The notes below the pieces were generated by a model, which saw only the letters and a list, made by a program, of their open reading frames with translations, searched no databases and was not told the DNA's origin. From a virus (taxonomy: Duplodnaviria; Caudoviricetes), in IMG/VR virus record IMGVR_UViG_3300046526_000553, positions 64,001-128,000 of that record: 64,000 bases of DNA; one strand, 5' to 3'. This document shows, piece after piece, positions 1-40,949 of this stretch. Made by a program: the position numbers and the translations under genes. Positions within the stretch are counted from its first letter, which is position 1. Each line of letters starts with the position of its first letter.

Positions 1-152
1 AGAATCGAATGACGAGTGAACTGAAGAAGAATAAATATAAAGCCCACCCCTTGAAGATTCAAGCTAATAAAGTCCGACGAATAAGTAGGCATATTAAATC
101 ACATCCCAAAGACAAACAATCAATCAAAGTATTAGAAAAACTTTAAAAAACC

Positions 153-181
153 TTGACATAGAGTTTTTGTTGGTGTAGTAT
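153..181 (+). promoter_or_regulatory. sigma70-type promoter with TGGTG extension, upstream of large ncRNA
   Basis: TTGACA-17 nt (ending TTGGTG)-TAGTAT; same architecture recurs across the window. Confidence 0.75.
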
Positions 182-191
182 AAAACTTAGT

Positions 192-597
192 TAGTTCTTT
201 AAAACCTGCAATGGTCACCTAATCAGTTGCTAACACACGGCTAAGGTCATCAAATCGATTGGAAACAATTATCAATGTCAGCCCCCTTCTCGTGAGGGAA
301 GGGTCAATAATCAAAGGCGGGTGTTGAGGGTCGAAAGACTGAGGAGATGTGCAAACCCTATCCCTTCGGGGATATTCTTAACAACGAATTGGATTGGGCG
401 GCTCCATCTGTTCATAACTAAAGTTGTGACCAGTTAGCCGCCCACGCTTTAAGCGTAGTGTGTGAGGGTTTGTGATGCTGAAGTAGATTACTTTGTTTGC
501 TAGACCATCTAAGCGAATCTGGGGAAACTCGGTGAAGCCTCTGGTAGGAACGGCGGCAGGATAATGGTTTCAGCCCATTGCAGGTTTTAGGGAATTA
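192..597 (+). ncRNA. large structured ncRNA (~400 nt), family unassigned
   Basis: 23-bp closing stem 192-214/575-597 with G-U pairs; GUGA, GAAA and UUCG tetraloop hairpins; GGGCGGCT/AGCCGCCC helix; no ORF. Confidence 0.8.
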
Positions 598-758
598 TGA
601 AGCAGAGCTTTGTTCGCTGTTTAATATAGTAAAAACAGGAACAAAGCTGCACACAACGGTAATCGCACTACATAAATAAACGCAAGATTTTCACCGTCTA
701 AAGATGAATAAAACCAATGCCACTATAGCTAGTACTATAAGAATTGTTAAAAGCACTA

Positions 759-941
759 TTAACCTCTTTTGCGCCAATCAACGCTCCACCAGCTTGGAAC
801 GAATAATTCTATAAGAAGAATTACAACACCTATCACTACTGACAGGATACCTAAATTATGAGCACTCACTGTTATCCAAGTTGCCCAGACAGCCCCGATA
901 AAGATGGCCCAGAGGGCAAGAATCACCACGGATACTCTCAT
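759..941 (-). CDS. small two-TM membrane protein
   Basis: ORF with AAGGAG RBS and TGGTGTTATAAT upstream; hydrophobic. Confidence 0.6.
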   Translation of the reverse strand: MRVSVVILALWAIFIGAVWATWITVSAHNLGILSVVIGVVILLIELFVPSWWSVDWRKRG

Positions 942-1263
942 TTGATAATCTCCTTTAATTTATAATTTACTATCACATTATAACACCACTATAATTTGTT
1001 TGTGTATAGTATTGCACACGGTTTAGCCATGTGCTACAATCGGGTTAATGTTCAGAAGCAGGAAGGACTGAGCGTTGACCATTAACAAATTATAAAACAA
1101 ACTCGGACGGCAGGGCGGTTGTCCGAGGATAAACAAAGCCCCGCAGAGCGGTTGGCATTAGCCAGAGCTGAGAAACGGGGAAGGATTCCGTTTATGATGG
1201 AATACTCGCCACGGGTAAGATAAGCGATTCAATAACAACGAATAAGAGAAGGAGAAACCTTTC

Positions 1264-2106
1264 ATGGGTAAGATAAGCAAACTTGCTTTGCAAGTAGGTA
1301 CTTCCGTATTTGCAGTTGCAGCTATCACAACAGGTGCAGTTGCTGCTACAGCACCGTCACAAGGATGGCAGTTCAATAATAGTAAACAAGATAACTATAA
1401 GAGTGATAATCACAGTAGCGATAATCATAATAAAGATAATAATCGCAACGACAATAACAATGGTCGTAACGATAACAAAGACTATAATAAGGATGAGCAT
1501 AAATCTAACAAGGTTTATACCTCAAGCTACACGTATAAAAACGACAATCATAGTAGTAGTTATGACAAACATAGCTATAAAGTAACTAGCTATCACAAGA
1601 GCAAACATGATAGTAACTGTGGTTGCAGCACCAATGATAGCCACGGGTATAATAAATTTGGCTTTGACAAATATGGGTTCAATCGTCAAGGTTACGACAA
1701 GCATGGCTTCAACCGCTATGGGTTCGATTGCTACGGGTTTAATCGTCAGGGTTTTGATAAAAACGGATATAATAAGAGTGGTTACGATAAAGACGGATAT
1801 AGCCACCAAGGCTTTGACAAATATGGGTTCAATAAAGATGGCTATGATTGCAATGGTTACGGCCGCGATGGGTATAATAAGCAAGGCTACAATAAAAATG
1901 GCTGCGACAAATACGGTCGGTCAAAATACAACCACCGCAGTGAACACTTCAAAGAAGTTTCATACACGCACAAAGATGACAACCACAAACCTTGCCACCG
2001 GAATGATGGTGAAAAAAGCAAGAACTGGGATTCCCACAAATCTTACAACAAAGATTCTCAGTACAGTGATAACAACCAACAGGACAACTACAACAAAGTT
2101 GACTAG
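1264..2106 (+). CDS. secreted low-complexity protein with G(Y/F)(D/N)KxG repeats
   Basis: signal peptide, AAGGAG RBS, tandem GYDK/GFNR pentapeptides; hairpin terminator at ~2121-2155. Confidence 0.75.
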   Translation: MGKISKLALQVGTSVFAVAAITTGAVAATAPSQGWQFNNSKQDNYKSDNHSSDNHNKDNNRNDNNNGRNDNKDYNKDEHKSNKVYTSSYTYKNDNHSSSYDKHSYKVTSYHKSKHDSNCGCSTNDSHGYNKFGFDKYGFNRQGYDKHGFNRYGFDCYGFNRQGFDKNGYNKSGYDKDGYSHQGFDKYGFNKDGYDCNGYGRDGYNKQGYNKNGCDKYGRSKYNHRSEHFKEVSYTHKDDNHKPCHRNDGEKSKNWDSHKSYNKDSQYSDNNQQDNYNKVD

Positions 2107-2154
2107 TTGAGACAAAACTTAAAACACCCACGGGTAATATCGTGGGTGTTTTCT

Positions 2155-2501
2155 TTATTTCCTTTTTGTACGATGATAATATTCACTTTGATATTTTGAC
2201 CAAGCTTCTGCGCATTCTTCACACCGACAACTATATTTAGTGTAGCCAGTAATTGTCCCGTGTTTAAGGTGCCAGCCCCTATCCTCTTTGGTCTTTTTCC
2301 AATGACAGTCATGGCATAATACCTGACATTTGGCTAATTCAACATCCCGTTTAGACTCAGACCAACACCACACATTATTGGACACTTTAAGTTTAGGGTC
2401 AATATGGTCAAGTTCGAGATTCTCAGTGCTACCACACCTTATACATGATTTATCAACAAACCATTCAGCTCTCTTCTTTTCTCAATGTCCTTATAAGGCA
2501 T
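2155..2501 (-). pseudogene. HNH endonuclease, frameshifted near N-terminus
   Basis: CIRCGSTENLELDHIDP...CQVLCHDCH...CRCEEC motifs; ATG at 2501 (MPYKDIEKRR) is out of frame with the HNH body. Confidence 0.65.
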
Positions 2502-2557
2502 CCGGTTAGTATATCATACATTATGACTAATTATTAAAATAAAAAGATATATTCATA

Positions 2558-2636
2558 TGGGTCACGGGACAGGCTTCGAACCTGTAAAAATTCCACATTC
2601 AAAGTGTGGTGACTTTCCCAGTTTGTCTACCCGTGA
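2558..2636 (-). tRNA. tRNA-Gln(TTG)
   Basis: cloverleaf, ccaca-CTTTGAA-tgtgg, GGTTCGAA T-loop, encoded CCA. Confidence 0.9.
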
Positions 2637-2639
2637 TTA

Positions 2640-2713
2640 TGGCTGGGTGAGAACGGCTCGAACGCTCATCTACTGGCTCAGAACCAGTTATTCTACCTTT
2701 AAACTATCTCCCA
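2640..2713 (-). tRNA. tRNA-Gln(CTG)
   Basis: actgg-TTCTGAG-ccagt, CCA end. Confidence 0.85.
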
Positions 2714-2718
2714 TTATC

Positions 2719-2804
2719 TGGTGCCAGCAGAACGATTTGCACATTCGTAGTCCTAAGACGGCTGATTTACAGTCAGCTGGGTTTGTCTGCTTCCCTATAC
2801 TGGC
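2719..2804 (-). tRNA. tRNA-Tyr(GTA)
   Basis: gctga-CTGTAAA-tcagc, long variable arm, CCA end. Confidence 0.85.
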
Positions 2805-2809
2805 ATAAA

Positions 2810-2886
2810 TGGCCTCTCCCCTCCGAGTTGCACGGAGACCTTCTGGGCTTCAACCAGATGTGCAGATACTGCTACACCAGAAAGAG
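2810..2886 (-). tRNA. tRNA-Phe(GAA)
   Basis: tctgg-TTGAAGC-ccaga, CCA end. Confidence 0.85.
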
Positions 2887-2890
2887 TTGA

Positions 2891-2967
2891 TGGAGGTACC
2901 ATGACGAAATCGAACGCCACTCTCCTGGTTACAAATCAGGTGCATCGCCACTAAATGCTTTGGTACC
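2891..2967 (-). tRNA. tRNA-Thr(TGT)
   Basis: cctga-TTTGTAA-ccagg, CCA end. Confidence 0.85.
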
Positions 2968-2976
2968 AAGTAAACG

Positions 2977-3003
2977 AAAAAAGCTTCCTATGGAGGAAGC
3001 TTT
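2977..3003 (-). terminator. attenuator terminator of tRNA operon 1
   Basis: AAAGCTTCCT-ccat-AGGAAGCTTT followed by U-run on minus strand. Confidence 0.85.
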
Positions 3004-3032
3004 CTCGTAGAACTCATGTGAGAGTAAATACG

Positions 3033-3098
3033 TTAGCAGCTACCTCCACCAAACGGTGTGGTATATCGCTGTTGGGTAAACGTAAAATCTTTACTCAT
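3033..3098 (-). CDS. leader peptide 1 (MSKDFTFTQQRYTTPFGGGSC)
   Basis: leaderless ORF 7 nt below TTGACT-17-TACACT promoter (3105-3133); rich in Thr/Phe/Gln/Tyr; 3' end TGGAGGTAGCT complementary to terminator 5' arm. Confidence 0.8.
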   Translation of the reverse strand: MSKDFTFTQQRYTTPFGGGSC

Positions 3099-3135
3099 AT
3101 TGATAGTGTATAGAAAATTAATTAAAAAGTCAAGT

Positions 3136-3621
3136 TCAAAAATTCGGTCTCATGATATAAGTGAGCTCAGGACTAAAATAAATGATATGACCACCGGCTA
3201 TTATTCTTTCAACCACATGTAAATCTTCATGCTTTTCGTTTTGAAATGGATATTCTAAAATAACCGAACGCCTAACACTAAACCCCACTCCAATACACCC
3301 CCATTTAACTACCTGTAATGCTGGGAATAATTGTCCCGTATGAGTAAAATATTGTTTAAAATGAACTATATCTGCAGTGGGGTGTCGTTCAATTTCATGC
3401 TTCAGGGCAGCGACATAATTCGGTAATATGATATCATCATCGTCAAGAAAACTAACCCATTCCGTGGTTACCTGGGCTATTAATTGGTTTTTAATTAAAC
3501 TCTGTCCAATATGGTCATCATCAAAACCAACAAGATACGGGTTGTCCCCGATAGAATCAATAGCTCTCTGTAATGTATCACGCCTTACTGAAGGGATAAT
3601 AAACGTGGTTATTGGTTTCAT
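3136..3621 (-). CDS. short GT-A/family 2 glycosyltransferase
   Basis: TFIIPS..R..L.RAIDSI, EWVSFLDDDD, ED motifs. Confidence 0.75.
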   Translation of the reverse strand: MKPITTFIIPSVRRDTLQRAIDSIGDNPYLVGFDDDHIGQSLIKNQLIAQVTTEWVSFLDDDDIILPNYVAALKHEIERHPTADIVHFKQYFTHTGQLFPALQVVKWGCIGVGFSVRRSVILEYPFQNEKHEDLHVVERIIAGGHIIYFSPELTYIMRPNF

Positions 3622-3663
3622 GTATGTTGTGAGCAAGTATACCACGGTCTATAATTATATTAA

Positions 3664-3921
3664 ATGCATTTGGTTTATGACCCTAATGAACATGATTTCT
3701 TTATTGGCGAAGTACCTTTAAAAGATTTCTATATACAAGCCAGAAAAGAATCAGGGATATCGATAAATAAACTAGAACAAATAACAACATTGGCACATCC
3801 AACTTTGAGTAATATTGAGCGTGGAAATGGTAAAAAAAGTAACAGCACAAGAGCCATGCTAGCTACATTGCCCTATTTGGGTTATAACATACTAATTATA
3901 AAACGTAACAAACCAGACTAA
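3664..3921 (+). CDS. XRE-family HTH regulator
   Basis: ARKESGISINKL...TLSNIERG. Confidence 0.7.
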   Translation: MHLVYDPNEHDFFIGEVPLKDFYIQARKESGISINKLEQITTLAHPTLSNIERGNGKKSNSTRAMLATLPYLGYNILIIKRNKPD

Positions 3922-4190
3922 GTTTTTATACTATTGTCTTCCAAATTAACACTAAGGTATCTTTCTTTTCCACAGTTCGCACATTTATCCACATAATATT
4001 TATGGGTACCGAATTCCCATTTTAATGCTCTCTGATAATTATGCAATTTGCCAACTTTGCCCTTACACCACTTGCGGGTATCTTTGCTATTATGAAAATG
4101 ACCACGGGTCGGTTGACTATGGTCATGCTTGAAATCCCTTTTTATAATACCGCTCGCTCTCCACGAGCTTGAATCTTTTTTAAGTCTCAT
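3918..4190 (-). CDS. hypothetical protein (KDTRKWCKGKVG-type small phage protein)
   Basis: ORF with AAGGAG RBS and CxxC. Confidence 0.6.
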   Translation of the reverse strand: MRLKKDSSSWRASGIIKRDFKHDHSQPTRGHFHNSKDTRKWCKGKVGKLHNYQRALKWEFGTHKYYVDKCANCGKERYLSVNLEDNSIKT

Positions 4191-4659
4191 ATAACTCCTT
4201 TGTTAAACGATACTTAGGCTTGATTGCAACTTTACTGTTACCTGATTTTTTATATGGTTTGCAAAGCCCGCATCCATGATAGCCAGGCTTTTTCTTATGA
4301 TGCGCCATTTCACCTGCCTCCTCTCATTTAATGATATTTGGTCGAAGCTTCTGCTGCCTGAGCTGGTGAGGCTGCAGGACTTTTGGTGGGGAGGAGATGA
4401 ATTCCTGGTTGTCACATCTCATGACCTAGTTTTATGCGACTCTTTGGGTCTTAGGGCGTCGCACCTTGATTAGAGGCTAGCCCCCTTTAACGTCTACTTT
4501 ACCTATGTGTTATTGCTAACTAAATGGTTATGTTAACCTACGAAAATCATTTCCGGCGATTTAAACGTACCACAACCAACCACGTCGCTGCTGAGCAGCC
4601 CAGCCTTTTCCGTCACTCCCCATTAGCATTATACACCATCGTAAATATATTTCAAGATA

Positions 4660-4733
4660 TGGAGCCGCCGACAGGAATTGAACCTGCTTTATCAGTTTTG
4701 CAAACTGTTCGCTTGCCATCTGCGTCCAGCGGC
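4660..4733 (-). tRNA. tRNA-Cys(GCA)
   Basis: anticodon loop TTGCAAA, GGTTCAA T-loop, CCA. Confidence 0.9.
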
Positions 4734-4736
4734 TTA

Positions 4737-4822
4737 TGGCGGTAGATTGACATCCCGACTGTCATACCTTTCGGCACCATCCGTTTAGCAAACGGAGCCA
4801 GCTCCCAGCTGGTTAATCTACC
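4737..4822 (-). tRNA. tRNA-Ser(GCT)
   Basis: tccgt-TTGCTAA-acgga, long variable arm, atypical T-loop, CCA. Confidence 0.8.
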
Positions 4823-4825
4823 CTG

Positions 4826-4911
4826 TGGAGGAGAGCCAGAGACTCGCACTCTGAAGCCTGTCACAGCCATTTGTTTTCAAAACAAATTCCTCATCTAGCC
4901 GGATACTCTCC
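4826..4911 (-). tRNA. tRNA-Ser(TGA)
   Basis: tttgt-TTTGAAA-acaaa, variable arm, CCA. Confidence 0.85.
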
Positions 4912-4914
4912 ATA

Positions 4915-5166
4915 TTATTCATGTTTTTTCCTTCTACCTGTACGCCAGCGCCATTCATTTGTAATATCGGCATTTGCCCTTCTACACAAATCGCATCGGC
5001 ACTTATAGTAATCATATCCTTGTTTTGTACCATGCTTAAGCCCATAACCCATATCTCGTCTGGTTTTTTCAGCGTGGCATTCATGGCAAAGAATCTGACA
5101 TTTAGCAAGTTCAGCTTCCTTCCGTTCCTTCCCCCATGTCCAGATGTTATGGCTGACTTTCAGTTT
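4915..5166 (-). pseudogene. C-terminal half of HNH endonuclease (paralog of 2155-2501)
   Basis: KLKVSHNIWTW...ELAKCQILCHECH...CRCDLC, no start codon. Confidence 0.7.
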
Positions 5167-5200
5167 GGAGACAGATAGTTTACTATTAGCCTAAACCCCT
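5164..5200 (-). pseudogene. tRNA-Trp(CCA) 5' half only
   Basis: AGGGGTT acceptor strand, D arm, TCTGT-CTCCAA, then joins HNH fragment. Confidence 0.7.
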
Positions 5201-5205
5201 ATAAA

Positions 5206-5236
5206 GCAAAAACCGCCATTTCGGGTCGGGCGGTTT
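5206..5236 (-). terminator. attenuator terminator of tRNA operon 2
   Basis: AAACCGCC...GGCGGTTTTT. Confidence 0.8.
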
Positions 5237-5278
5237 CGCATATGTTTTGATAGTTGTGTCAGGTACGTGAAAACATAT

Positions 5279-5341
5279 TTAGCCAACCGCTCCTTTACAG
5301 AGCCACAAACTCGATAATGATTGACTTATAACTTTTTCCAT
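5279..5341 (-). CDS. leader peptide 2 (MEKVISQSLSSLWLCKGAVG)
   Basis: leaderless ORF 7 nt below TTGACT-17-TACTAT (5348-5376); Ser/Leu/Trp/Cys cluster; GCGGTT complementary to terminator arm AACCGC. Confidence 0.8.
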   Translation of the reverse strand: MEKVISQSLSSLWLCKGAVG

Positions 5342-5398
5342 ATAAAAATAGTATCAAACTATACACCAGAAGTCAAGGTGCACAGCTTATTGTACAAA

Positions 5399-5755
5399 CT
5401 ATAAATCGGGCATATCCTCAACTTGTTCAATGAATTCGCCCATAAATCTCCTACTGGCATCGATTCCTTTATCAAATAAATCCATTGGAGAGGGTACGGC
5501 ATTAATCAAATGTATGCCCGTATAAATTAAACCGGCAGATAGAACGTAGCGTCCGACTTTATGCTCCATGCCACGAGTAAAGGCAGCACCCAACGTTTCC
5601 TTACCAAACACATCACAAGCCACTACATACGCTCCAAGACCGCCCCAGAATAAAGTACCTTGGTGCTCATTAGTTAGGGTATTTACCTTTTCCTTGAAGC
5701 TCATACTTATAGTATACAGCCTAAACTGGGCACCGGGGAAAGCTACATCTTCCAT
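5399..5755 (-). CDS. small membrane protein (start probably at MSFKE)
   Basis: ORF track, hydrophobic segments. Confidence 0.55.
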   Translation of the reverse strand: MEDVAFPGAQFRLYTISMSFKEKVNTLTNEHQGTLFWGGLGAYVVACDVFGKETLGAAFTRGMEHKVGRYVLSAGLIYTGIHLINAVPSPMDLFDKGIDASRRFMGEFIEQVEDMPDL

Positions 5756-5822
5756 GGTGCCCTACTACAACAAAAAGAGAGACCGAATACACAGCCTCTC
5801 TTCAGGGAGTACCTAGTCTTAA

Positions 5823-6170
5823 CTAAGTTGCAGAAACGTCTCCAGCCTGGGGAGTTTCAGCTGGAGGAGTCTCTTCGGGCGGAGTTGGCTCTACTGGAGG
5901 TGTCGTGTCAGCCGGAGGAGTTGTTTCCGGTGCTGTGACAGTAAAGCCTGCAGCTGTAAGGGCATCGACAAGTGGTTGTTGACCAAATACTTCGACAAGT
6001 CCCTTAGTCTGGATAGCTTGGACGACCGCTGTTGTTACGGGGTCTTCTACTGGTGGTGGTGTCGGGACAAGATTTGCAACAGCAGTTGCTAGTGCCTGTA
6101 CATCCGCATCAACTTTGACTTCTTCTGCAAGTAAGTCTTGGACTGCTTGCTGGAACTGAGTTAAATCCAT
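5823..6170 (-). CDS. acidic Pro/Thr-rich hypothetical protein
   Basis: AGGAG RBS, ORF track. Confidence 0.65.
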   Translation of the reverse strand: MDLTQFQQAVQDLLAEEVKVDADVQALATAVANLVPTPPPVEDPVTTAVVQAIQTKGLVEVFGQQPLVDALTAAGFTVTAPETTPPADTTPPVEPTPPEETPPAETPQAGDVSAT

Positions 6171-6235
6171 TATATTTCTCCTATCTTTAAATTTCTATTT
6201 TTATTGTAACAGGGGTTTAGTATGTCTGTCAAAGA

Positions 6236-6309
6236 TGGTGAAGGCAATGGAATTCGAATCCATATTACCGGAGTGAAAATCCAGCTTCCTGCCGTTAGAA
6301 GATGCCTCC
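6236..6309 (-). tRNA. tRNA-Glu(TTC)
   Basis: ctgga-TTTTCAC-tccgg, CCA. Confidence 0.9.
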
Positions 6310-6312
6310 ATA

Positions 6313-6387
6313 TGGGGCGCATAAGGAGAATTGAACTCCTATTATATGATTGAGATTCATATTTCCTGTCCGTTAGAAGATATGCGC
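6313..6387 (-). tRNA. tRNA-Glu(CTC)
   Basis: tatga-ATCTCAA-tcata, CCA. Confidence 0.85.
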
Positions 6388-6391
6388 TTAT

Positions 6392-6464
6392 TGGTACCCG
6401 ATTCCGGCTCGAACGGAATCCTCTTCATGTAAAAAAGTCGCTCTGCCAATTGAGCTAATCGGGC
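6392..6464 (-). tRNA. tRNA-Val(TAC)
   Basis: loop TTTACAT, canonical D and T arms, CCA. Confidence 0.85.
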
Positions 6465-6468
6465 TTGA

Positions 6469-6543
6469 TGGTTAGGCATATCTGGGTCGAACAGATGACT
6501 TCACTATATAAGAGTGACATTTTGGCCGTTAAACTAATGCCTA
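6469..6543 (-). tRNA. tRNA-Ile(TAT)
   Basis: tcact-CTTATAT-agtga, CCA. Confidence 0.85.
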
Positions 6544-6550
6544 TTATCTT

Positions 6551-6751
6551 AGTGAGCGAGTAATGCACTTTTCCGATATTTTCCCGATTCTCTTTTTCTG
6601 GCGTCCCAGAAAGTATTACGGTCTCTTTAGGGGCATATAGGGAAGACTGTGTTGATTTCCCTTTACCCTCGACGGGTTCTTGGATTGGCTCACTACACCA
6701 ATCTTCAGCATTACACTAACCAGCGATGGAGCTAAGGGTGTTTCGCTCACC
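6551..6751 (-). ncRNA. ~200-nt structured RNA inside tRNA operon 3
   Basis: closing stem GGTGAGCGA/TCGCTCACT, several internal hairpins, not a cloverleaf. Confidence 0.55.
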
Positions 6752-6752
6752 T

Positions 6753-6826
6753 TGGTTGAACTGCGTGGTAATGCTCCACGGTTGGCATCTTATCAGAATG
6801 CTGTCCTACTTTTGAACGACAGTTCA
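6753..6826 (-). tRNA. tRNA-Ile(GAT)
   Basis: gcatt-CTGATAA-gatgc, atypical T-loop, CCA. Confidence 0.8.
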
Positions 6827-6830
6827 TTAT

Positions 6831-6907
6831 TGGAGGGTCTGGGGGTACTCGAAACCCCTTTAGCTGGCTTAAAAGGCCAGGGCCTCGTCCATTTCGGCAT
6901 CAGACCC
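6831..6907 (-). tRNA. tRNA-Lys(TTT)
   Basis: ctggc-CTTTTAA-gccag, CCA. Confidence 0.85.
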
Positions 6908-6914
6908 ATAGGTA

Positions 6915-6990
6915 TGGTACTCTCGGCAAGATTCGAACTTGCAAAAAAGCTGTTTCGAAGACAGGTTATCACTCCGATGATTGCGAGAGC
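6915..6990 (-). tRNA. tRNA-Arg(TCG)
   Basis: ctgt-CTTCGAA-acag, CCA. Confidence 0.8.
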
Positions 6991-6991
6991 T

Positions 6992-7064
6992 TGGTTCCGC
7001 TGTTTGGACTTTAACCAAAACCTTTAAGCTTAGAACACTTTTATGCTTATTACACCACAGCGGC
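6992..7064 (-). tRNA. tRNA-Arg(TCT), degenerate
   Basis: loop GTTCTAA, weak stems, CCA. Confidence 0.65.
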
Positions 7065-7068
7065 AAAT

Positions 7069-7143
7069 TGGAGGGCTTGGAGGGACTCGAACCCACTTAA
7101 GCTTATTTAAGAGATAAGTACCTAACCGTTCGGCATCAAGCCC
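7069..7143 (-). tRNA. tRNA-Lys(CTT)
   Basis: cttat-CTCTTAA-ataag, CCA. Confidence 0.9.
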
Positions 7144-7149
7144 GTTACA

Positions 7150-7608
7150 TTAAATATGTTTCCATGTATCTCGATTTAAGACATGCGTTATCGTTTTACC
7201 ATTTAAGCCGTATTCTCTAGAGAGCCTACGCCATCCTATACCAGTTTCTTTATGGCGTCTCCTTATTTCTAATACTTGTTCTGTGGTAAGCTTACTTGCA
7301 TGATGCTTCTCCCCAAAGCTACGTTCAAGGGGGATAAACTTACGCCCTTTTTGTAAAGCATCTACAAGATTATCACTGTAAGTCCCCAGCCACAAATGTT
7401 CAGGATTAACGCATAATCGGACATCACAGGTATGGCAGACTAACATTCCTTTTGGTATTTCACCATAAGTAAGCATAAATGCTACACGATGTGAATCTAT
7501 AACTTTATCTCCAAGTCTAAAACGACCATAACCATTGCTATTTTTAGCAGCGACCCATAGAATGCATCCGCTACCAGCTATCTCAGCTTTACTCCAAAAA
7601 CGTTGCAT
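7150..7608 (-). CDS. HNH homing endonuclease inserted in tRNA array
   Basis: RFWSK...CILW...GYGRF...HRVAF...VCHTCDVRLCVNPEHLWLGT motif plus C-terminal HTH. Confidence 0.9.
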   Translation of the reverse strand: MQRFWSKAEIAGSGCILWVAAKNSNGYGRFRLGDKVIDSHRVAFMLTYGEIPKGMLVCHTCDVRLCVNPEHLWLGTYSDNLVDALQKGRKFIPLERSFGEKHHASKLTTEQVLEIRRRHKETGIGWRRLSREYGLNGKTITHVLNRDTWKHI

Positions 7609-7650
7609 CGGTTTAGTATACCATGCACACACTTTGATTGTCAAGATACA

Positions 7651-7724
7651 TGGCTGGCACGGCCAGATTCAAACTGGCATTTTTCGGGTAACAACCGAGA
7701 GTCCTATCATTGGACGACACGCCA
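7651..7724 (-). tRNA. tRNA-Asn(GTT)
   Basis: loop TTGTTAC, CCA. Confidence 0.85.
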
Positions 7725-7742
7725 ATATTGTTAAAGTGCTTA

Positions 7743-7816
7743 TGGTACGGGTAGTCGGATTCAAACCGACGAGTCCAACTTGGAAGGATGGCAGTTTATC
7801 ACTAGCTTATACCCGT
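7743..7816 (-). tRNA. tRNA-Gly(TCC)
   Basis: loop CTTCCAA, CCA. Confidence 0.85.
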
Positions 7817-7821
7817 GTATT

Positions 7822-7897
7822 TGGTCGCGATAGACGGCAATTGCAGCCGTTCCTTAGACTTCACAGGTCTATGTGCTCCTACTTACACCACTACGCG
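7822..7897 (-). tRNA. tRNA-His(GTG)
   Basis: tagac-CTGTGAA-gtcta, CCA. Confidence 0.8.
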
Positions 7898-7904
7898 TGT
7901 ATTT

Positions 7905-7978
7905 TGGTGGAGAATAACGGTTATGCTCCGTTGTCTACTGCTTGCAAAGCAATTAGTCTACTATTGACCTAATTCCCC
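7905..7978 (-). tRNA. tRNA-Ala(TGC)
   Basis: GGGG 5' end with G3-U70, loop TTTGCAA, CCA. Confidence 0.85.
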
Positions 7979-7981
7979 TTG

Positions 7982-8058
7982 TGGTGCCAGGTTTGAGTAT
8001 TGCACTCAACTTATACTAGTTTATGAGGCTAGCAAGAACTCTATGCCTTCCACCTGGT
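7982..8058 (-). tRNA. tRNA-Met(CAT) (elongator Met or Ile2 not resolved)
   Basis: loop CTCATAA, CCA. Confidence 0.75.
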
Positions 8059-8062
8059 ATAT

Positions 8063-8137
8063 TGGCGTCCATAAGGAATTTTGAAATCCTGACCTTCCGC
8101 CTGACAAACGGGTGCTCTGCCTCTGAGCTATATGGAC
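8063..8137 (-). tRNA. tRNA-Asp(GTC)
   Basis: loop TTGTCAG, CCA. Confidence 0.85.
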
Positions 8138-8140
8138 ATA

Positions 8141-8215
8141 TGGTCTGGAACGAGAATTTCGCAATCTCGGCCTCCGGTTCCCAAAACCGGCGCTCTGCTT
8201 CTGAGCTAGTCCCAG
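8141..8215 (-). tRNA. tRNA-Pro(TGG)
   Basis: ccggt-TTTGGGA-accgg, CCA. Confidence 0.85.
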
Positions 8216-8221
8216 TTATGT

Positions 8222-8252
8222 AAAAAGCCCGCTTCTTTTGGTTGCAGGCTTT
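8222..8252 (-). terminator. attenuator terminator of tRNA operon 3
   Basis: AAAGCCTGC...GCGGGCTTTTT. Confidence 0.8.
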
Positions 8253-8278
8253 GATTTGTCTATGTGCTTGAGCTATTC

Positions 8279-8359
8279 TTATACGCCTGCAATCAACCCT
8301 TTATCGCCATGATTGGCTTCGGGCTTATTAATGGTATTCGGGCGTATGAATTTACTCAT
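8279..8359 (-). CDS. leader peptide 3 (MSKFIRPNTINKPEANHGDKGLIAGV)
   Basis: leaderless ORF 7 nt below TTGCAT-17-TACACT (8366-8394); TTGCAGGC near stop complementary to terminator arm GCCTGCAA. Confidence 0.8.
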   Translation of the reverse strand: MSKFIRPNTINKPEANHGDKGLIAGV

Positions 8360-8398
8360 ATTGCTAGTGTAGCATACTGATTTTAGAAATGCAAGTTT

Positions 8399-8566
8399 TT
8401 ATTTACTGTTCCTTATCAGTTGTCGAATAATTTTACGTACCCACCCCGATGCGGTCATGCCTTCATCGTGCAAGATATCTATGAATTCGTCATAGGTATC
8501 CATGTCAACGTATACGACGATGCGTCTTTGCTGTTTTTGTTTTATCCTTGGGCTTAGTTGACTCAT
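8399..8566 (-). CDS. 55-aa possible ribbon-helix-helix protein
   Basis: MSQLSPRIKQKQQRRIVVYVDMDTYDEF...SGWVRKII read by eye; overlaps Ro60 3' end. Confidence 0.45.
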   Translation of the reverse strand: MSQLSPRIKQKQQRRIVVYVDMDTYDEFIDILHDEGMTASGWVRKIIRQLIRNSK

Positions 8567-10046
8567 ATAAATCAATCTTCTCTATCTTATTTACTAATGC
8601 GTTCTTATCGGTATTTAACAACTTTAACACGTCGAAAATTTTGTCTGAAAATCCAGCAATCTGATAGACCTGATTTTCAGGAAACTGCATCGTACCATAG
8701 CCACTTAAGTCAAAAGCGTAGATATATGGATTAGCACCTGTGCGCTTTTTATAATCCTCAAACTGAGCTTTTGGTGTGTAGTAACCTATCCATGCCTGCA
8801 TATCACTGAATATGAAGATGTGGTCATAGGCACGGCTAGCGGTTTCAAAGATAGCGTGAAAGTTAGTGCCATGACCTACAGAAGTGGGGGTGTTAGAACC
8901 ATAGCCATCGTTGCAGTCAGCTAACCAACGCAACTGACCTAGCACACTATCCTGTGTCACATTGTAATACTTGGCAGTATCACCAAAATACATGAAATCA
9001 GCATTGCTTTTCTTTGCCATTGCTACACCGAATAAAGCACCAATTTCGAAATTAGTAGCCTTGCTGCGTTCGCTCATAGAGCTATCCATGCTGCCACTGT
9101 GGTCAACGACCACTAAGGCATTATCGAAAGCAGGCATGTTATTGATTGAAATATCTAGTGCATTGCCAATAGCAGCCAGTGTTTTACGGGCTTCTGGACC
9201 TGCACCCCCATCAATTTCAGCAATTTCCTTATAGGCACTGAAATAACGGAACGGTAGAATCAATGATTTCTTGATAGCCTGCTCATTCTGCAATTGCTTC
9301 AAGGCAATATCAAGCACTTCAGGAGCCTGTTCAATAATATTTCTGAGGTTCCGTAGTAATGCAAACGCTGGAAGTTTGTCTTCCTTCAAAAGCTTAATCC
9401 ATGTATCGGCCTTAAGCTTATCCTTTTCAGCTTCGGTCTTTGCTTTCTGACCAGCCTGGACTAAGCCAGTCTCCCATGTATCAGAGGCACGTAAGGTACC
9501 TTTAATAAGCTGTTGAACAGCTTCGGTGTGAACCGGGTGAACTAGATTAGCTACATCAACAAGACTAACGTCCTTACCTTCGCCACGATATTTAGCTAAA
9601 TTGTAAGCGTTAAAATGTCCAAATGCCTGTGCAAAACCACGCTTAAGTGCATTAGGCTCTGTCTGATGACCAAGTGAATAATAATATGATAGAATTTCTG
9701 TCATATCATCTGGACGACGAATAACATTCTCGAAGAAATACTTTGTCCATGCTTCGCCCTTTACTCGATTAGCAATTTCACCAGCAACCACGTGGCTGAC
9801 ACTACGCATACCGAATTCATTACGAGCGTACACAGCAGCTTTGGCTGCAAACATAGGGTCTACGCTATTAAGTAATTCCTTGAGTTTATCAATGCCATCA
9901 TCAGAACTTCTATAATATTGATTCTGTACAAAACTTGTTAATAGGATTGATACAAACTCCAGCTTAGGGTTTTGCTGGAAAGCTTGACCACCAGCATTAT
10001 TAATAACCATAGTTGGTGAAGTTGTAGCGTTGAATCTACTGCTCAT
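8505..10046 (-). CDS. rsr: Ro60/TROVE-vWA RNA-binding protein
   Basis: NNAGGQAF N-terminus, YARNEFGMRS, ALLRNLRN TROVE motif, DHSGSM MIDAS vWA, IFSDMQ, IAGFSD. Confidence 0.95.
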   Translation of the reverse strand: MSSRFNATTSPTMVINNAGGQAFQQNPKLEFVSILLTSFVQNQYYRSSDDGIDKLKELLNSVDPMFAAKAAVYARNEFGMRSVSHVVAGEIANRVKGEAWTKYFFENVIRRPDDMTEILSYYYSLGHQTEPNALKRGFAQAFGHFNAYNLAKYRGEGKDVSLVDVANLVHPVHTEAVQQLIKGTLRASDTWETGLVQAGQKAKTEAEKDKLKADTWIKLLKEDKLPAFALLRNLRNIIEQAPEVLDIALKQLQNEQAIKKSLILPFRYFSAYKEIAEIDGGAGPEARKTLAAIGNALDISINNMPAFDNALVVVDHSGSMDSSMSERSKATNFEIGALFGVAMAKKSNADFMYFGDTAKYYNVTQDSVLGQLRWLADCNDGYGSNTPTSVGHGTNFHAIFETASRAYDHIFIFSDMQAWIGYYTPKAQFEDYKKRTGANPYIYAFDLSGYGTMQFPENQVYQIAGFSDKIFDVLKLLNTDKNALVNKIEKIDLYESTKPKDKTKTAKTHRRIR

Positions 10047-10059
10047 CTCATTCTCCTTG

Positions 10060-10128
10060 TAGGCGAGTAAAGTGCGGTTTGTGGGTTTTCAATTCCATTT
10101 GAAGTAACAAACCGCTCGCTGCGCCCTA
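10060..10128 (-). ncRNA. short Y-RNA-like gene (Y3)
   Basis: GCGAGCGGTTTG..TACTTC 5' arm pairs with CAAACCGCACTTTACTCGC; immediately 5' of rsr. Confidence 0.75.
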
Positions 10129-10146
10129 GTTGATAAAGTACCTTTA

Positions 10147-10276
10147 TGTGCGAGTAAATCATGGTTGGCGTTTCCCTTTCGGGATTCAGTTGGAGTTGAA
10201 CCAACAATCTTTACAATTGAAATGTAACGCTTAAACCAAATAAGCTATGAAGTAGCCAGACCATTCGCTACGCACA
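10147..10276 (-). ncRNA. Y-RNA-like gene with tRNA-like domain (Y2)
   Basis: same end motifs; internal D arm, anticodon arm and GGTTCAACTCC T arm. Confidence 0.8.
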
Positions 10277-10291
10277 GTGTAAAAGTTCTAA

Positions 10292-10424
10292 TGTACGGGT
10301 AAATTGTGGTTTGCAGATGATGACTTTCGTCATCGTTTCCAGCTTTCGCCGTTTTAGGGTTTGAACCTAATATTACATTTGTGGATGTAAATTATCCGAA
10401 GTAGCAAACCGCTCGCCTCGTACA
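10292..10424 (-). ncRNA. Y-RNA-like gene with partial tRNA-like domain (Y1)
   Basis: same end motifs; T arm TTAGGTTCAAACCCTAA; promoter TTGACT-17-TATTAT at 10431-10459. Confidence 0.8.
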
Positions 10425-10518
10425 CATCCTATAATAGGGCATAATTGTGCACAAGTCAACACCTTTTTTATAAATTAAAAAGCCACCTGATAAAGATGGC
10501 TTCCTAATCTACCCGTTT

Positions 10519-11265
10519 TTATCTTTGAAAGGCTTTTCTACTTCTTAGGTAGATAAATCTTCCGGCATAACCGAGCGCACTAACGCCTAGAAATGCTGGA
10601 ACGATAGAATTGCCTGCTCCAGTATTTGGCAATGTGGTCGGTTGATTTTGCGCAGTTGGCGTGAATGTCTTTGCTGGCTCACCTGCTCCCTTGCCTGTGT
10701 ACAATGGCGGTGGTACCGATGGAGGTGTTCCAGTAGGTGATGGCGGAGGAGTTACTGGTGCTGGAGGAGTAATCGGCGGGGGTACTGGAGGGGGTGTAGT
10801 TTTATCGCAAGGGCATGGTTTATTAACATGCCTCAGGTGATGTATATACACCTTTTTATCACAAGGTTTCTTGTGCTCATAATTTTTCTGATAAGATGTT
10901 TTAGTATCAACTTTCGTGTATGTCTCTTCGTGTGATACTTCTTTTTTCTTCTTATCACAGGGCTTCTTTTCATGTTCATTTACAATCCGTGGATGAGACT
11001 GTGGGATGACATCAGAATCTGATAAATACGGTTTCTGATATTCAGGCTGTTGTTGATTATCTTTCATATTCTGATTATTGCAATCACTATGATGGCTTTG
11101 TTTATCCTGATTATCCCAATTAGTATCTTTTGTATAGTGTGAATTATCCTGCTGACCACCGCTACAATCGATTGTTGCTAAGGCTGGTGCTGTACTAAGA
11201 GCAAAAACCCCAACCACAATAGTCGGAATGCTCCATACATATTGCCTATATTTATGTTTAATCAT
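10519..11265 (-). CDS. secreted LPXTG-type cell-surface protein
   Basis: signal peptide, Pro-rich linker, LPNTG + TM + basic tail. Confidence 0.8.
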   Translation of the reverse strand: MIKHKYRQYVWSIPTIVVGVFALSTAPALATIDCSGGQQDNSHYTKDTNWDNQDKQSHHSDCNNQNMKDNQQQPEYQKPYLSDSDVIPQSHPRIVNEHEKKPCDKKKKEVSHEETYTKVDTKTSYQKNYEHKKPCDKKVYIHHLRHVNKPCPCDKTTPPPVPPPITPPAPVTPPPSPTGTPPSVPPPLYTGKGAGEPAKTFTPTAQNQPTTLPNTGAGNSIVPAFLGVSALGYAGRFIYLRSRKAFQR

Positions 11266-11333
11266 TTTAATGACCTCCTTTAATGATATTATCCCTTATT
11301 ATACACCATCATTTCGTTTTGTGCACCACCAAA

Positions 11334-11561
11334 TTACTTTTTAATGCTGGACAAGTGATAATAGCCACAATTATCACAGAAATAATAATCTATATCTTCA
11401 TCTGAATGAGTACTAGCAAAAGCAGCTGCACTGTTCGCTTCATTCGGTGTATGATATGTTGTTTTTTGTTCGCAGCTATGTTTTACATAATATGGGACAT
11501 TGTCAAAATTATGTCTACTAAACCGCTGAGATATATTTCGAATACGTGATGCTTTGCCCAT
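11334..11561 (-). CDS. small Zn-binding phage protein
   Basis: C..K..Y.T..EA...Y.CDNCGYYHLSS. Confidence 0.65.
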   Translation of the reverse strand: MGKASRIRNISQRFSRHNFDNVPYYVKHSCEQKTTYHTPNEANSAAAFASTHSDEDIDYYFCDNCGYYHLSSIKK

Positions 11562-11576
11562 GATTTTATTATACGC

Positions 11577-11789
11577 CTATTTTAGCTTGATGTTCGGGAT
11601 AGTAGATTCCCTTGCAACATAGACCTTGAATTCATCAAATAATATATTTCTTAAGAATTTATCGCATTGTTCGCACAAACCGAGTGACCACGAATCAAAA
11701 TTATAAACATGGTGGATTTTTATACCATCGGATTCAATGTGTTCGCAGTTTCTAAAGATAGGGTTAGGTAGGTTGGCTGCTTTGGTCAT
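11577..11789 (-). CDS. hypothetical protein (true start MTKAAN)
   Basis: ATG 7 nt below GGTGGTATAAT; longer track ORF runs into the repeat array. Confidence 0.55.
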   Translation of the reverse strand: MTKAANLPNPIFRNCEHIESDGIKIHHVYNFDSWSLGLCEQCDKFLRNILFDEFKVYVARESTIPNIKLK

Positions 11790-11814
11790 ATAGTTATTAT
11801 ACCACCTGCAGCCA

Positions 11815-12426
11815 ACCTGTGTTAGGAGAAGAGTAAAGCCATGCCTTGCCTGCCTTTCCGTACCAACAAGCGCTACCTCGACCGGACACAACTCAACTCG
11901 TCTTGAGGCGACCGGACTCGTGGCGACTCGCCTGCCATGGCTGGACGCTTCGAGACTCGCGATGACCGGACCGGACATCCACGACTCGCTCAGACCTAGC
12001 GCTCCCAGTCACATCTGGACTCGCCGGGACGTGGCTTGACTCACCTGCACTACCTTGATTATGCGGAAACCGGTCATGACAAAACCTATCTCGAAACGTC
12101 TCGTCTCAACACAACATGCCTGCCTTGAGGAGACTTGACGCACCTGGACCTAACTCGACTCGGCTCAACTCGTCGTGAGGAGACTTGACCGGACACTCCT
12201 AGCCTGCCATGAATTGACTCACCTTGACCCGTCAGGAGATGACTTGACCGGACGCACCTCGTCTTGCCTGCCCTGCCTGGACAACCCCAACTTGCCACGA
12301 AAAGAGGTGTCTGAACTTATTGCGACTTTCCCAGCCTGCTATTCCACTCCATGTCATGCCTAGACAATCGCACCGGGACATGACGTGACGAAACGTGACT
12401 CGCCTGCCCTGTCTAAGTTATTAGAC
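11815..12426 (-). ncRNA. VIPR-like guide array A: units of G(G/T/A)Y-NN pentamers separated by GGCA
   Basis: strict 5-nt periodicity, e.g. ggcta ggagt gtccg gtcaa gtctc ctcac gacga gttga gccga gtcga; about 8 units delimited by GGCAGGC. Confidence 0.85.
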
Positions 12427-38894: not shown

Positions 38895-39500
38895 TCATTG
38901 TTCACCTCCTGAATACTCCACCTCAACTGGTGGATGGTTGATATCAAATACATCATACGGTGAGCCATACTCACCAAAGTTACTAACATCTTCATCTTGC
39001 CAAAAGCAGTTAACGTTCAACCCCATCTCTGTGAGCTTATCGAATATGGCTGATGGTGGACTCCATGCAGTATTAAATTGCAGTACCAACTTTGTTGGAC
39101 TCTCAAGCAATAACTTGGCTTCGTAAGCGCCCCATTTCGTTGACCAATTCGCAATTGCCCATTCATACCAACTATCTGCCCCGTAAACGCTCATACGGCG
39201 CTCCTGTTCGGCTTTTGTGATAGCTTTGATAGTCTGGTCGCTTTTGAACGGGCTATCATCTTTAGCATAGTTTAAATTAATTTTGTCGGCTTCGGCTTGC
39301 GTTGCCACAACCTCTGTCGGTGAAATTGTTTCATTAAGTTCTTTTGGCATAGGTATTATACCGTTAAAGTCAAAATATATTTCACTACCTATTGCTGGTT
39401 GTTCGTTGTTATTGAATTGTTTAATAGTATCCGCCTTGAGTTTAGCGATTGATTTTTCATCACCGCTTATCTCAACCCAATTTGTTATGTGATTTGGCAT
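38895..39500 (-). CDS. DUF1281/YubB ferredoxin-like domain protein
   Basis: MPNH..N, FDFN.IIPMP, WY.W...NW.TKW, F.TAWSPP. Confidence 0.8.
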   Translation of the reverse strand: MPNHITNWVEISGDEKSIAKLKADTIKQFNNNEQPAIGSEIYFDFNGIIPMPKELNETISPTEVVATQAEADKINLNYAKDDSPFKSDQTIKAITKAEQERRMSVYGADSWYEWAIANWSTKWGAYEAKLLLESPTKLVLQFNTAWSPPSAIFDKLTEMGLNVNCFWQDEDVSNFGEYGSPYDVFDINHPPVEVEYSGGEQ

Positions 39501-40949
39501 AGTTTCTCCTTATCCTTAATCTTCATATCCCGTTGCCCAAGCTAACAGCATTGCTATATTAATACAAGCTATGCCCTTACCATCCCGGCAAAGCATGATG
39601 TTGCTTTCCGTATGGTCATTCATAGCATTATCAAAATCTCCACCACCAAAGACTAGCGTCAATTCCTGTTCATCTGGCTCATGCCAATCTTGTCTAACAC
39701 CTAATCGCTTTTTGAGTTCCAACAATTCTTTCTTTGTTCTAATCTGTTGCATCTTACCCCTTTCGTTTACTTGAAAAAATCTTCATCCATGTTATTAATT
39801 TCACCATTATCTAAACTTGCGTCTAGCATAACTTCATTATCACTATTTCGTACTACAGTAATGTTGGCATTACCGCGCCTATCATAGCTCAAAATACCCC
39901 TGTAATTTGCCAGTTTAGGCTGTAATGTGACGTAGTTATCTTCGTATTCTTCAAATTTAGTACCATTCACCTCTACCTTGAAAACTTTATCTAACTTTGG
40001 CATTTTACCCCTTTCGTTTAACTTACTCTACAAGCATACACCAGCAGTAACAATAAAGTCAATGATTTTTTACTTGTTTTTTACATTCCGGCATACTTCG
40101 CAGTTCTTCTACCAATTCAGATTTATGTGATTCCATTGCCAAACGCCATAAAGCCTCTTTTCCAGCTTCAGTTACGTTATCTTGTTCATCAATATAGCCT
40201 GATTCAACCAATAAACAATTTTCATCATCTGAATTTGGCTCATTGCAATAAATTAATATTCTCATAACTAACAGCCAAAATAATACCATACCAATAATTA
40301 TCATTTTACTTCCTTTTCATGGCATACGGCACAAACCCCATTGATATTACAATGCTTACCGTTATTAACTTCGGCAAAACCACAAACATAATAATCCACA
40401 TTACCCCCTATACTGTCGGCAAATTAATGTCTTTAGCTGCTTTCACAACTCCAAACTGCGTAACTATTTCAAACCATTTTGTAATACCAGATTGAATACC
40501 ATTGCCATCTCGACCATTTCCGTTGATACCCACAATTCCAATCTGATAGCCCCAATTCCAACTTGGCGCACTATAAAAACCGGTTCTGTAATAGTTTGGT
40601 TGTATATTACCAAAATATTTCTTAGCGTTATCTATGGCTGTTTCATCTTCCAAGTACCAGTCTTTCAATTCTTTGTAACTTATCGTATTCATGGCTACTC
40701 CCTCAATTTACTTCCGTGTTATATTTATATAATCGCATTCTCTTTAAATTCTCGTACTAAACGGTATTTACGTGCAATTTCGTAAAAAAATGCTTGCCAA
40801 TCCGCTAGTTCACTCCAATACCAATCATGATTACCAAAATCTGATTGCCATTCTATAGCCAAATCCCTTGCTTGTTCAGCATTTTTGATACTGCTTATTT
40901 CAGGTATTATCATTTTAACCATATTTTACCCCCTTATTGTAATCTTAGT

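Follow-up and report, generated by a model that had tools for sequence, protein, structure and literature searches.

A probable new family of structured, roughly 400-nt RNAs associated with tRNA arrays in phages

Results

Locus and genome context

The window analysed here is a stretch of 64,000 nucleotides, bases 64001-128000 of the IMG/VR phage record IMGVR_UViG_3300046526_000553. The record is 143.8 kb long, 94% complete and has a GC content of 39.6%. Close to the left edge of the window, at 192-597 on the plus strand, lies a conserved core of 406 nt, which runs from the 5' strand to the 3' strand of a terminal helix (P1) and is defined by nhmmer homologues, by the alignment A4 and by covariation. 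The ORFs that overlap this region are all short (<=38 aa), and the RNA is present in one copy per genome. The stretch was found in two DNA sequencing runs, from rhizosphere and soil metagenomes; among the runs listed, no RNA sequencing run contained it.

The portal gene and a GroES/GroEL pair lie directly upstream of the window, so that the gene order is portal, GroES, GroEL, RNA. The chaperonin genes (G000:C1:61451-63407, equivalent to L002:11451-13407) lie shortly before window base 1. Among cellular proteins the phage GroEL is closest to those of Saccharimonadales (candidate phyla radiation), with about 55% identity, a hint at the host of the phage or at the donor of the gene. Upstream of the portal gene there is an HNH endonuclease gene (L002:6539-7246, minus strand), confirmed by Pfam and PHROGs. 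Genes of this sort are commonly met as mobile passengers in phage tRNA islands, and an HNH-like ORF of 76 aa, recognised from its translation, is also found at 2155-2385 (minus strand) between the RNA and the tRNA array of the window.

This array (2558-8215, minus strand; ARAGORN and Rfam) begins about 2 kb downstream of the RNA, on the opposite strand and convergent with it, and holds roughly 20 tRNA genes. ARAGORN called 17 tRNAs in the window. Rfam likewise found 17, four of them without an ARAGORN call, and one of these four is located outside the array (10185-10251). One ARAGORN prediction at 6392-6464 (minus strand) has the anticodon ACA and is labelled Cys, while a second tRNA-Cys (GCA) is found at 4660-4733; the ACA call may be a misread or an unusual decoder. 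The tmRNA gene of the phage is distant from the RNA. It lies outside the window at genome positions 141984-142350 (plus strand), scores 62.3 bits against RF00023 and was missed by ARAGORN.

A further promoter-like site was observed in the window at 1013-1265 (plus strand); it reads TGCACA-16-TACAAT and has a TG upstream. The 224-nt leader that follows it folds well (z -4.5) and may be a cis-regulatory leader. The protein encoded behind this leader (1264-2106; 280 aa) begins with a signal-like N-terminus and contains repeats rich in Asn, Asp, Tyr and Gly.

Fold of the window copy

An earlier note on this DNA, made from the sequence alone, had proposed that 192-650 codes for a highly structured RNA of about 400 nt, which it could not assign to a family and which would have its own promoter. 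Folding of 185-660 agrees with such an RNA. The plus strand reaches a minimum free energy of -169.5 kcal/mol against a mean of -132.6 for dinucleotide shuffles (z -6.0), and 0 of 100 shuffles were as good. The minus strand of the same segment folds more weakly (-143.5, z -5.0). The ends are formed by an inverted repeat of 23 nt (192-214 and 575-597), in which 87% of the pairs are Watson-Crick and the three exceptions are G-U pairs on the plus strand. GAAA loops are found at 262-265, 333-336 and 524-527, a GUGA loop caps the 281-300 hairpin and a UUCG loop the 361-374 hairpin. The terminal helix and the GNRA/UUCG caps had both been described before, and both are present as described; GAAA, GUGA and UUCG read properly as caps from the plus strand only.

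Homologues

The known members are ten full-length copies of 349-425 nt, the window copy included, and one truncated copy. All of them come from contigs of uncultured phages. Two homologous loci, L006 and L007, were found by synteny, as relatives of the phage GroEL (63-67% identity) with the same portal-GroES-GroEL order, and their contigs match the RNA in nhmmer with E-values of 3e-28 and 2e-25. L006 also has a tmRNA gene (11451-11915, minus strand; 48.2 bits against RF00023). For the conserved core, nhmmer E-values of 3e-28 to 1e-108 were recorded among the homologues, and the matches consist of long identical blocks between variable and inserted segments. A scan of viral and metagenome collections with a conserved block of 18-24 nt contributed eight more contigs, three viral and five from metagenomes, and one of these copies is truncated. 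A second conserved-block pattern returned the same three viral contigs and no others.

Searches elsewhere gave no further members. Blastn of three members against cultured and GenBank phages produced no match, nor did megablast of window positions 1-12000 against GenBank phages. Among 185,579 prokaryote species genomes the 24-nt block was hit twice, in neither case with wider similarity, and these two hits appear to be chance matches. A looser 16-nt pattern gave at least 116 chance hits and no family member. A portal-profile search of the viral contigs uncovered three distant loci, all without the RNA. L003-5, L008-11, L142-144 and the GenBank phage MW202497 were searched with R1, a covariance model of the 3' domain, and yielded no additional copy. 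L008 was rejected as a member: its resemblance is an insignificant 80-nt one inside an apparent coding sequence.

The carriers differ widely. One is the ~144-kb phage of the window, with 39.6% GC, GroES/GroEL and a tmRNA; another is a phage of 43.5 kb with 48.7% GC (G003, L157-L159). CheckV rates the latter as complete. It has at least 20 tRNA genes, an unusually high load for a genome so small, and carries the RNA at about 39143-39585. Its GenBank relative MW202497 (Manatee Spring) also carries groEL. Co-occurrence of the RNA with tmRNA was considered and rejected, since the complete 43.5-kb carrier has no tmRNA.

Covariation and strand

Alignment A4 comprises the ten full-length sequences, and the full structural model contains 116 pairs in 18 helices (1126 cells). 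RNAalifold alone proposed 108 pairs on these sequences, 72 of them with compensatory changes. In the full model 94.9% of the cells form a standard pair, compared with 76.0% in shuffled alignments (0 of 500 as high) and 37-45% when the pairing partners are slid by 1-3 columns. Pairs changed on both sides number 76 of 116, against 41.5 in the shuffled and 22-30 in the slid controls, and the covariation score is 0.581 against 0.221 and about 0.1, respectively. With ten related sequences the shuffle statistics are inflated by kinship; the slid-partner control preserves kinship and is the safer support. Covariation across the ten homologues shows selection on RNA structure.

The pairing also identifies the strand. 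G-U pairs are invariant in 10 of 10 sequences at alignment columns 236/403, 422/491 and 450/461, and are found in 9 of 10 at columns 152/200, 153/199 and 426/487. The plus strand is the RNA strand because these pairs would be A-C mismatches on the other one.

These observations bear on whether the locus is an element that acts as DNA, either a miniature transposon bounded by terminal inverted repeats of 23 bp or an origin of replication. The inverted repeat does surround a 360-bp segment, and the minus strand beats its shuffles as well. Against this, each genome has one copy, no flanking target-site duplication is visible by eye, and compensatory changes are found in fourteen internal helices. 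Many invariant G-U pairs are valid on the plus strand only. The tetraloops share this strandedness and the promoter points into the element. The probability of a DNA-level element is close to negligible.

Architecture of the conserved RNA

The model is described here in the coordinates of the window copy, all on the plus strand. P1 (192-214 with 575-597) has 23 pairs, 16 of which changed on both sides, and 95% of its cells are paired. It is followed by P2 (217-220/244-247), which closes around hairpin P3 (225-229/238-242, loop 230-237), the two together occupying 217-247. P2 was missed by RNAalifold and was found by a scan of column pairs; two of its four pairs changed on both sides and 100% of its cells are paired. 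An invariant CAUCAA follows P2.

The loop of P3 contains the 5' strand of a pseudoknot (234-237). Its partner (459-462) was found in the column-pair scan and lies in a conserved AGUGYG block right before the 3' strand of P7. Columns 109/391 are CG in nine sequences and AU in one, and columns 110/390 are GC in six and AU in four. Across the homologues the pairing appears as CACA/UGUG, CGCA/UGCG and AGCA/UGCU, with 100% of the cells paired. A pseudoknot had been suggested earlier at a different site, between 351-359 and 465-473. The pairing itself is genuine and corresponds to P7 (350-359 with 465-474; ten pairs, four changed on both sides, 98% of cells paired), but P7 is a nested long-range helix that encloses the variable domain and not a pseudoknot.

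Between P2 and P7 there are three smaller elements. Hairpin P4 (258-269) has a GAAA tetraloop invariant in 10 of 10 sequences, and all four of its pairs are compensatory. The P5 domain (273-326; helices 6-8) consists of an optional GUGA-capped hairpin at 281-300, aligned in the window, L006 and L140, and a conserved loop, AAUAAUCAAA, within 304-316. Hairpin P6 (329-340), which covaries, has a GAAA loop in 8 of 10 sequences, and a conserved purine-rich junction, GGAGAGG, lies behind it.

Inside P7 is the variable peripheral domain (360-456; helices 11-13). Its helices are P8 (396-402/437-443), P9 (408-417/424-433) and P10 (444-447/453-456), and all P8 pairs are compensatory. The UUCG hairpin at 361-374 is specific to the window copy. 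L006 has lost P8 together with the 5' strand of P9 and retains about 35 nt of the domain. The L145 copy has an inserted hairpin in its variable domain (~470-500, minus strand) whose sequence resembles a tRNA T-arm (GGGTTCGATTCCC), perhaps a T-loop motif or a piece captured from a tRNA.

The 3' domain (477-574; P11-P14, helices 14-18) forms one long interrupted arm, to which the covariance model R1 gives 125 bits in the window. Its tip is a CUGGG-GAAA-CUCGG hairpin (519-532) beside a conserved internal loop, GAAU/UGAA, and a GCGGYAG motif is conserved as well. In total the RNA core has three conserved GNRA loops, and the invariant unpaired blocks are CAUCAA, AUAAUCAA, GAGAGG and GAAUCUGGGGAA. 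A candidate tertiary pairing, CAUCA/UGAUG, would join 248-252 with 473-477; both blocks are nearly invariant. Such GNRA loops and invariant unpaired blocks are typical of RNAs that adopt a defined tertiary fold and present a binding or active surface.

Promoter and ends

A consensus scan found a promoter of the sigma-70 type, TTGACA-17-TAGTAT (153-181, plus strand; 10 of 12 matches), in agreement with the promoter claimed earlier. The predicted transcript start is at about 188-190, a few bases before the terminal helix. Flanks of the homologues were read by eye. In seven loci (window, L006, L007, L134, L131, L140 and L151) TTGAC(A/T), a spacer of 17-18 nt and TAnnnT are found 5-20 nt upstream of P1. 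L145 has TTTACT-16-TATAGT, and weaker candidates are seen in L152 and L149. By this reading, sites of the sigma-70 type precede P1 in at least 8 of the 10 loci, and they are present even where a tRNA gene ends merely 40-55 nt before.

At the 3' side, the boundary of 650 given previously was too far. It includes a separate 19-bp hairpin (602-650), seen in the fold and as an inverted repeat, which has not been conserved along with the RNA. On the plus strand it lacks a trailing U-run, and on the minus strand the U-run is weak. The hairpin is probably the terminator of a convergent gene for a 60-aa membrane protein (759-941, minus strand), and it may also stop the RNA transcript. In the inspected flanks of the homologues no counterpart of it was visible downstream of P1. 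There is no conserved terminator after P1 across the homologues.

tRNA arrays and neighbouring genes

A tRNA array lies within 2 kb of the RNA in 8 of the 9 loci with enough flanking sequence; L149 and L147, whose flanks are too short, were left out of this count. The arrangement varies. The RNA shares the strand of the array in three loci: tRNA genes flank it on both sides in L134 and L151, and in L145 it comes directly after the last tRNA. In the window, L006, L007, L131 and L140 the RNA and the array are on opposite strands, 0.4-2 kb apart. The exception is L152, where the sequence is free of tRNA genes for 5 kb on one side of the RNA and for 7.6 kb on the other. Conversely, the related phages L003 and L008 have tRNA arrays but not the RNA, and MW202497 has neither tRNAs nor the RNA. 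The link between the RNA and tRNA arrays is strong but not obligatory. The RNA occurs in quite different phages and therefore moves between them together with the tRNA island.

No protein neighbour common to all loci was found, and the RNA is independent of any one neighbour gene. In 6 of the 10 loci an ORF on the same strand starts <=20 nt downstream of P1. Four of these six ORFs (41-56 aa) belong to a single family of 41-60 aa proteins with the core KVIIVK..E.EKLI..GW.V, and in L149 a vWA gene is followed by a member of that family. The family was located at L134:11132-11254 (plus strand), L140:5358-5525 (minus strand), L152:4903-5043 (minus strand), L145:223-354 (minus strand) and L149:2244-2423 (plus strand). 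Its similarity to DUF2674 is weak and below threshold. The family is clade-limited and has no member in the whole genome of the window or in L006, L007, L131 and L151; it could be a clade-specific partner of the RNA.

Since a same-strand ORF lies near the 3' end in six of the ten loci, there is some room for a role in cis. The RNA would then be a very large leader, riboswitch-like or protein-binding, that controls the next gene downstream, in four cases a gene of the one small protein family. That family is missing from the window's genome, however, and the gene that comes next in the window, L006 and L007 is encoded on the opposite strand, while L151 has no ORF of >=25 aa starting within 60 nt downstream. 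A consistent cis leader or riboswitch was rejected on the count of 4 in 10 loci with no same-strand ORF start within 60 nt downstream. The RNA ends in its 23-bp closing helix, with no alternative-pairing expression platform, and conservation covers the RNA itself and not the junction between RNA and ORF. A cis-acting leader is thus very unlikely.

In another reading the RNA would be associated with the packaging motor or the virion, like the portal-binding pRNA of phi29. Its distance to the portal gene is ~3-4 kb in the window, L006 and L007, and that to the large terminase gene of the 43.5-kb phage is ~5.5 kb. Its constant neighbour, however, is the tRNA array and not the portal, and there is neither sequence nor model similarity to pRNA. 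The RNA also lacks conserved self-complementary or paired loops like those that build pRNA rings, and pRNA is not known outside the small phages of the phi29 type, whose genomes are protein-primed. A packaging RNA is extremely improbable.

Comparison with known RNAs

No Rfam family matched the RNA when window positions 1-1400 were searched with all families at E<=10. At the gathering score, searches of the window and 11 homologue loci returned only tRNAs and one tmRNA elsewhere. The cmscan check put forward in the earlier note therefore gave no strong match to any known family, even at the permissive threshold.

RNase P RNA deserved particular attention. Its bacterial form is similar in size (349-425 nt for the RNA here), has a helix that closes the 5' and 3' ends, a pseudoknot and GNRA loops, and is tied to tRNA genes. 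The phage might use such an RNA in a highly divergent form, or some other ribozyme that processes tRNAs, to mature its own tRNA array and its tmRNA. This would also fit the position of the RNA beside or inside tRNA arrays in a phage that encodes a tmRNA, and the combination of invariant unpaired blocks with a pseudoknot is ribozyme-like. However, RNaseP_bact_a and RNaseP_bact_b (RF00010, RF00011) gave no match at E<=10 over the whole phage genome, whereas 11 of 14 control genomes were matched, and the all-family scan of this region at E<=10 listed no RNase P family. The P4 pseudoknot of RNase P carries universally conserved blocks of the types GGAAAGUCC and ACAGAA, and alignment A4 contains neither of them. 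The helix order differs too. The P4 pseudoknot of RNase P brings together the segment that follows P3 and the one immediately ahead of the 3' strand of P1. In the present RNA, P3 is enclosed directly by P2, and the only covarying pseudoknot connects the P3 loop with a junction in the middle of the molecule. An RNase P RNA or a related processing ribozyme is a very improbable identity for this family.

Two other classes raised by the earlier note along with RNase P, all three of which it had found no motifs for, did not match either. tmRNA resembles the RNA as a stable molecule of a few hundred nucleotides that has pseudoknots and is carried by tRNA-rich phages, but neither ARAGORN nor Rfam (RF00023) detected tmRNA features in the RNA region, and the phage has its tmRNA gene elsewhere. 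The group I intron model (RF00028) had no match in window positions 1-1400. An intron was rejected on other grounds as well: the promoter abuts the 5' end and leaves no 5' exon, and no split gene flanks the RNA.

Stable RNAs other than tRNAs have a precedent in phage tRNA clusters. The species 1 and 2 RNAs of phage T4 (rnaC and rnaD) are stable, about 120-140 nt long and located within the T4 tRNA cluster. They share with the RNA described here a place near tRNA genes and are far smaller.

The closest parallels are ROOL and GOLLD, phage and prophage RNAs of unknown function that are 'often near tRNA islands' and form RNA-only assemblies (PMC12286853). The location of the RNA, in phages and near a tRNA island, is of this type, as had been suggested earlier, and the tRNA arrays in 8 of the 9 informative loci strengthen that comparison. 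Like the RNA here, ROOL is large, multi-branched and pseudoknotted, often lies near tRNA islands and is without a conserved protein partner (PMC12286853). It differs in length, roughly 580-660 nt versus about 400 nt, and in helix plan. The ROOL model (RF03087, gathering score 99.1 bits) was run over the complete 143.8-kb genome, where 12 candidates were scored and none matched at E<=10; the control genomes of this search were themselves without ROOL. ROOL forms RNA-only cages, whereas no self-complementary loops were seen in this RNA: among 11 loop and junction regions there was no conserved palindromic loop that could signal kissing-loop oligomers. Their absence is compatible with assembly through other contacts.

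GOLLD is likewise a large phage-borne RNA that is often located inside or beside tRNA arrays, and its expression rises during lysis (PMC12286853). It is often longer than 800 nt and combines a conserved 3' half with a variable 5' half, in contrast to the 349-425 nt of the members here. GOLLD was absent from the all-family Rfam scans, both in window positions 1-1400 at E<=10 and in the 11 homologue loci at the gathering score. The RNA is a separate family of the same kind as ROOL and GOLLD: it fails their models, has at most half their size and follows another helix plan. Fremin et al. 2023 reported 8,495 unnamed csRNA candidates from IMG/VR (PMC10690425), and a fragment of the RNA may be among them.

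Discussion

The segment 192-597 (plus strand) very probably is the gene for an independent, trans-acting and compactly folded non-coding RNA of about 400 nt, of the kind found in tRNA islands. That the RNA represents a real, new and rare family of uncultured tailed phages can be held with high confidence.

A tentative sequence of events can be proposed for its action. The RNA would be transcribed from its own strong promoter of the sigma-70 type, and a helix of 22-23 bp would lock its two ends together. It would thus be expressed and accumulate stably, with its ends protected by P1. The folded core would be made up of P1-P7, the loop-to-junction pseudoknot and the long 3' arm. On the present analysis it would most likely act in trans, as a compact folded particle. 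Because the gene appears to travel with the phage tRNA island, the particle, alone, self-associated or together with a host protein, would during infection act on the tRNA or translation system of that island. The chance that the role of the RNA concerns tRNA or translation is judged to be about even, and any single specific mechanism has a low probability.

Large RNAs of complex fold without a protein partner are rare in bacteria and phages. The past cases were ribozymes, ribonucleoprotein cores and, recently, RNA-only cages. One rather unlikely, speculative reading is that the present family is a third, far smaller class of 'ornate' phage RNA of tRNA islands that works as an RNA-only machine. 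Such a machine might be a new ribozyme whose substrates are tRNA precursors or damaged tRNAs. It might also be a particle that the RNA forms by self-assembly and that captures either tRNAs or a host defence nuclease directed against tRNA. Should this be true, the natural 349-nt version in L006 would be the most tractable entry yet to a function of the GOLLD and ROOL type.

Whichever way the independent tRNA-island RNA acts, its length of 349-425 nt and its dispensable peripheral domain make it small enough for structure probing, crystallography, cryo-EM and simple biochemistry. The presence of an unrelated family in the niche of GOLLD and ROOL, and in very unlike phages, suggests that the need for a large folded RNA arises repeatedly in tRNA islands.
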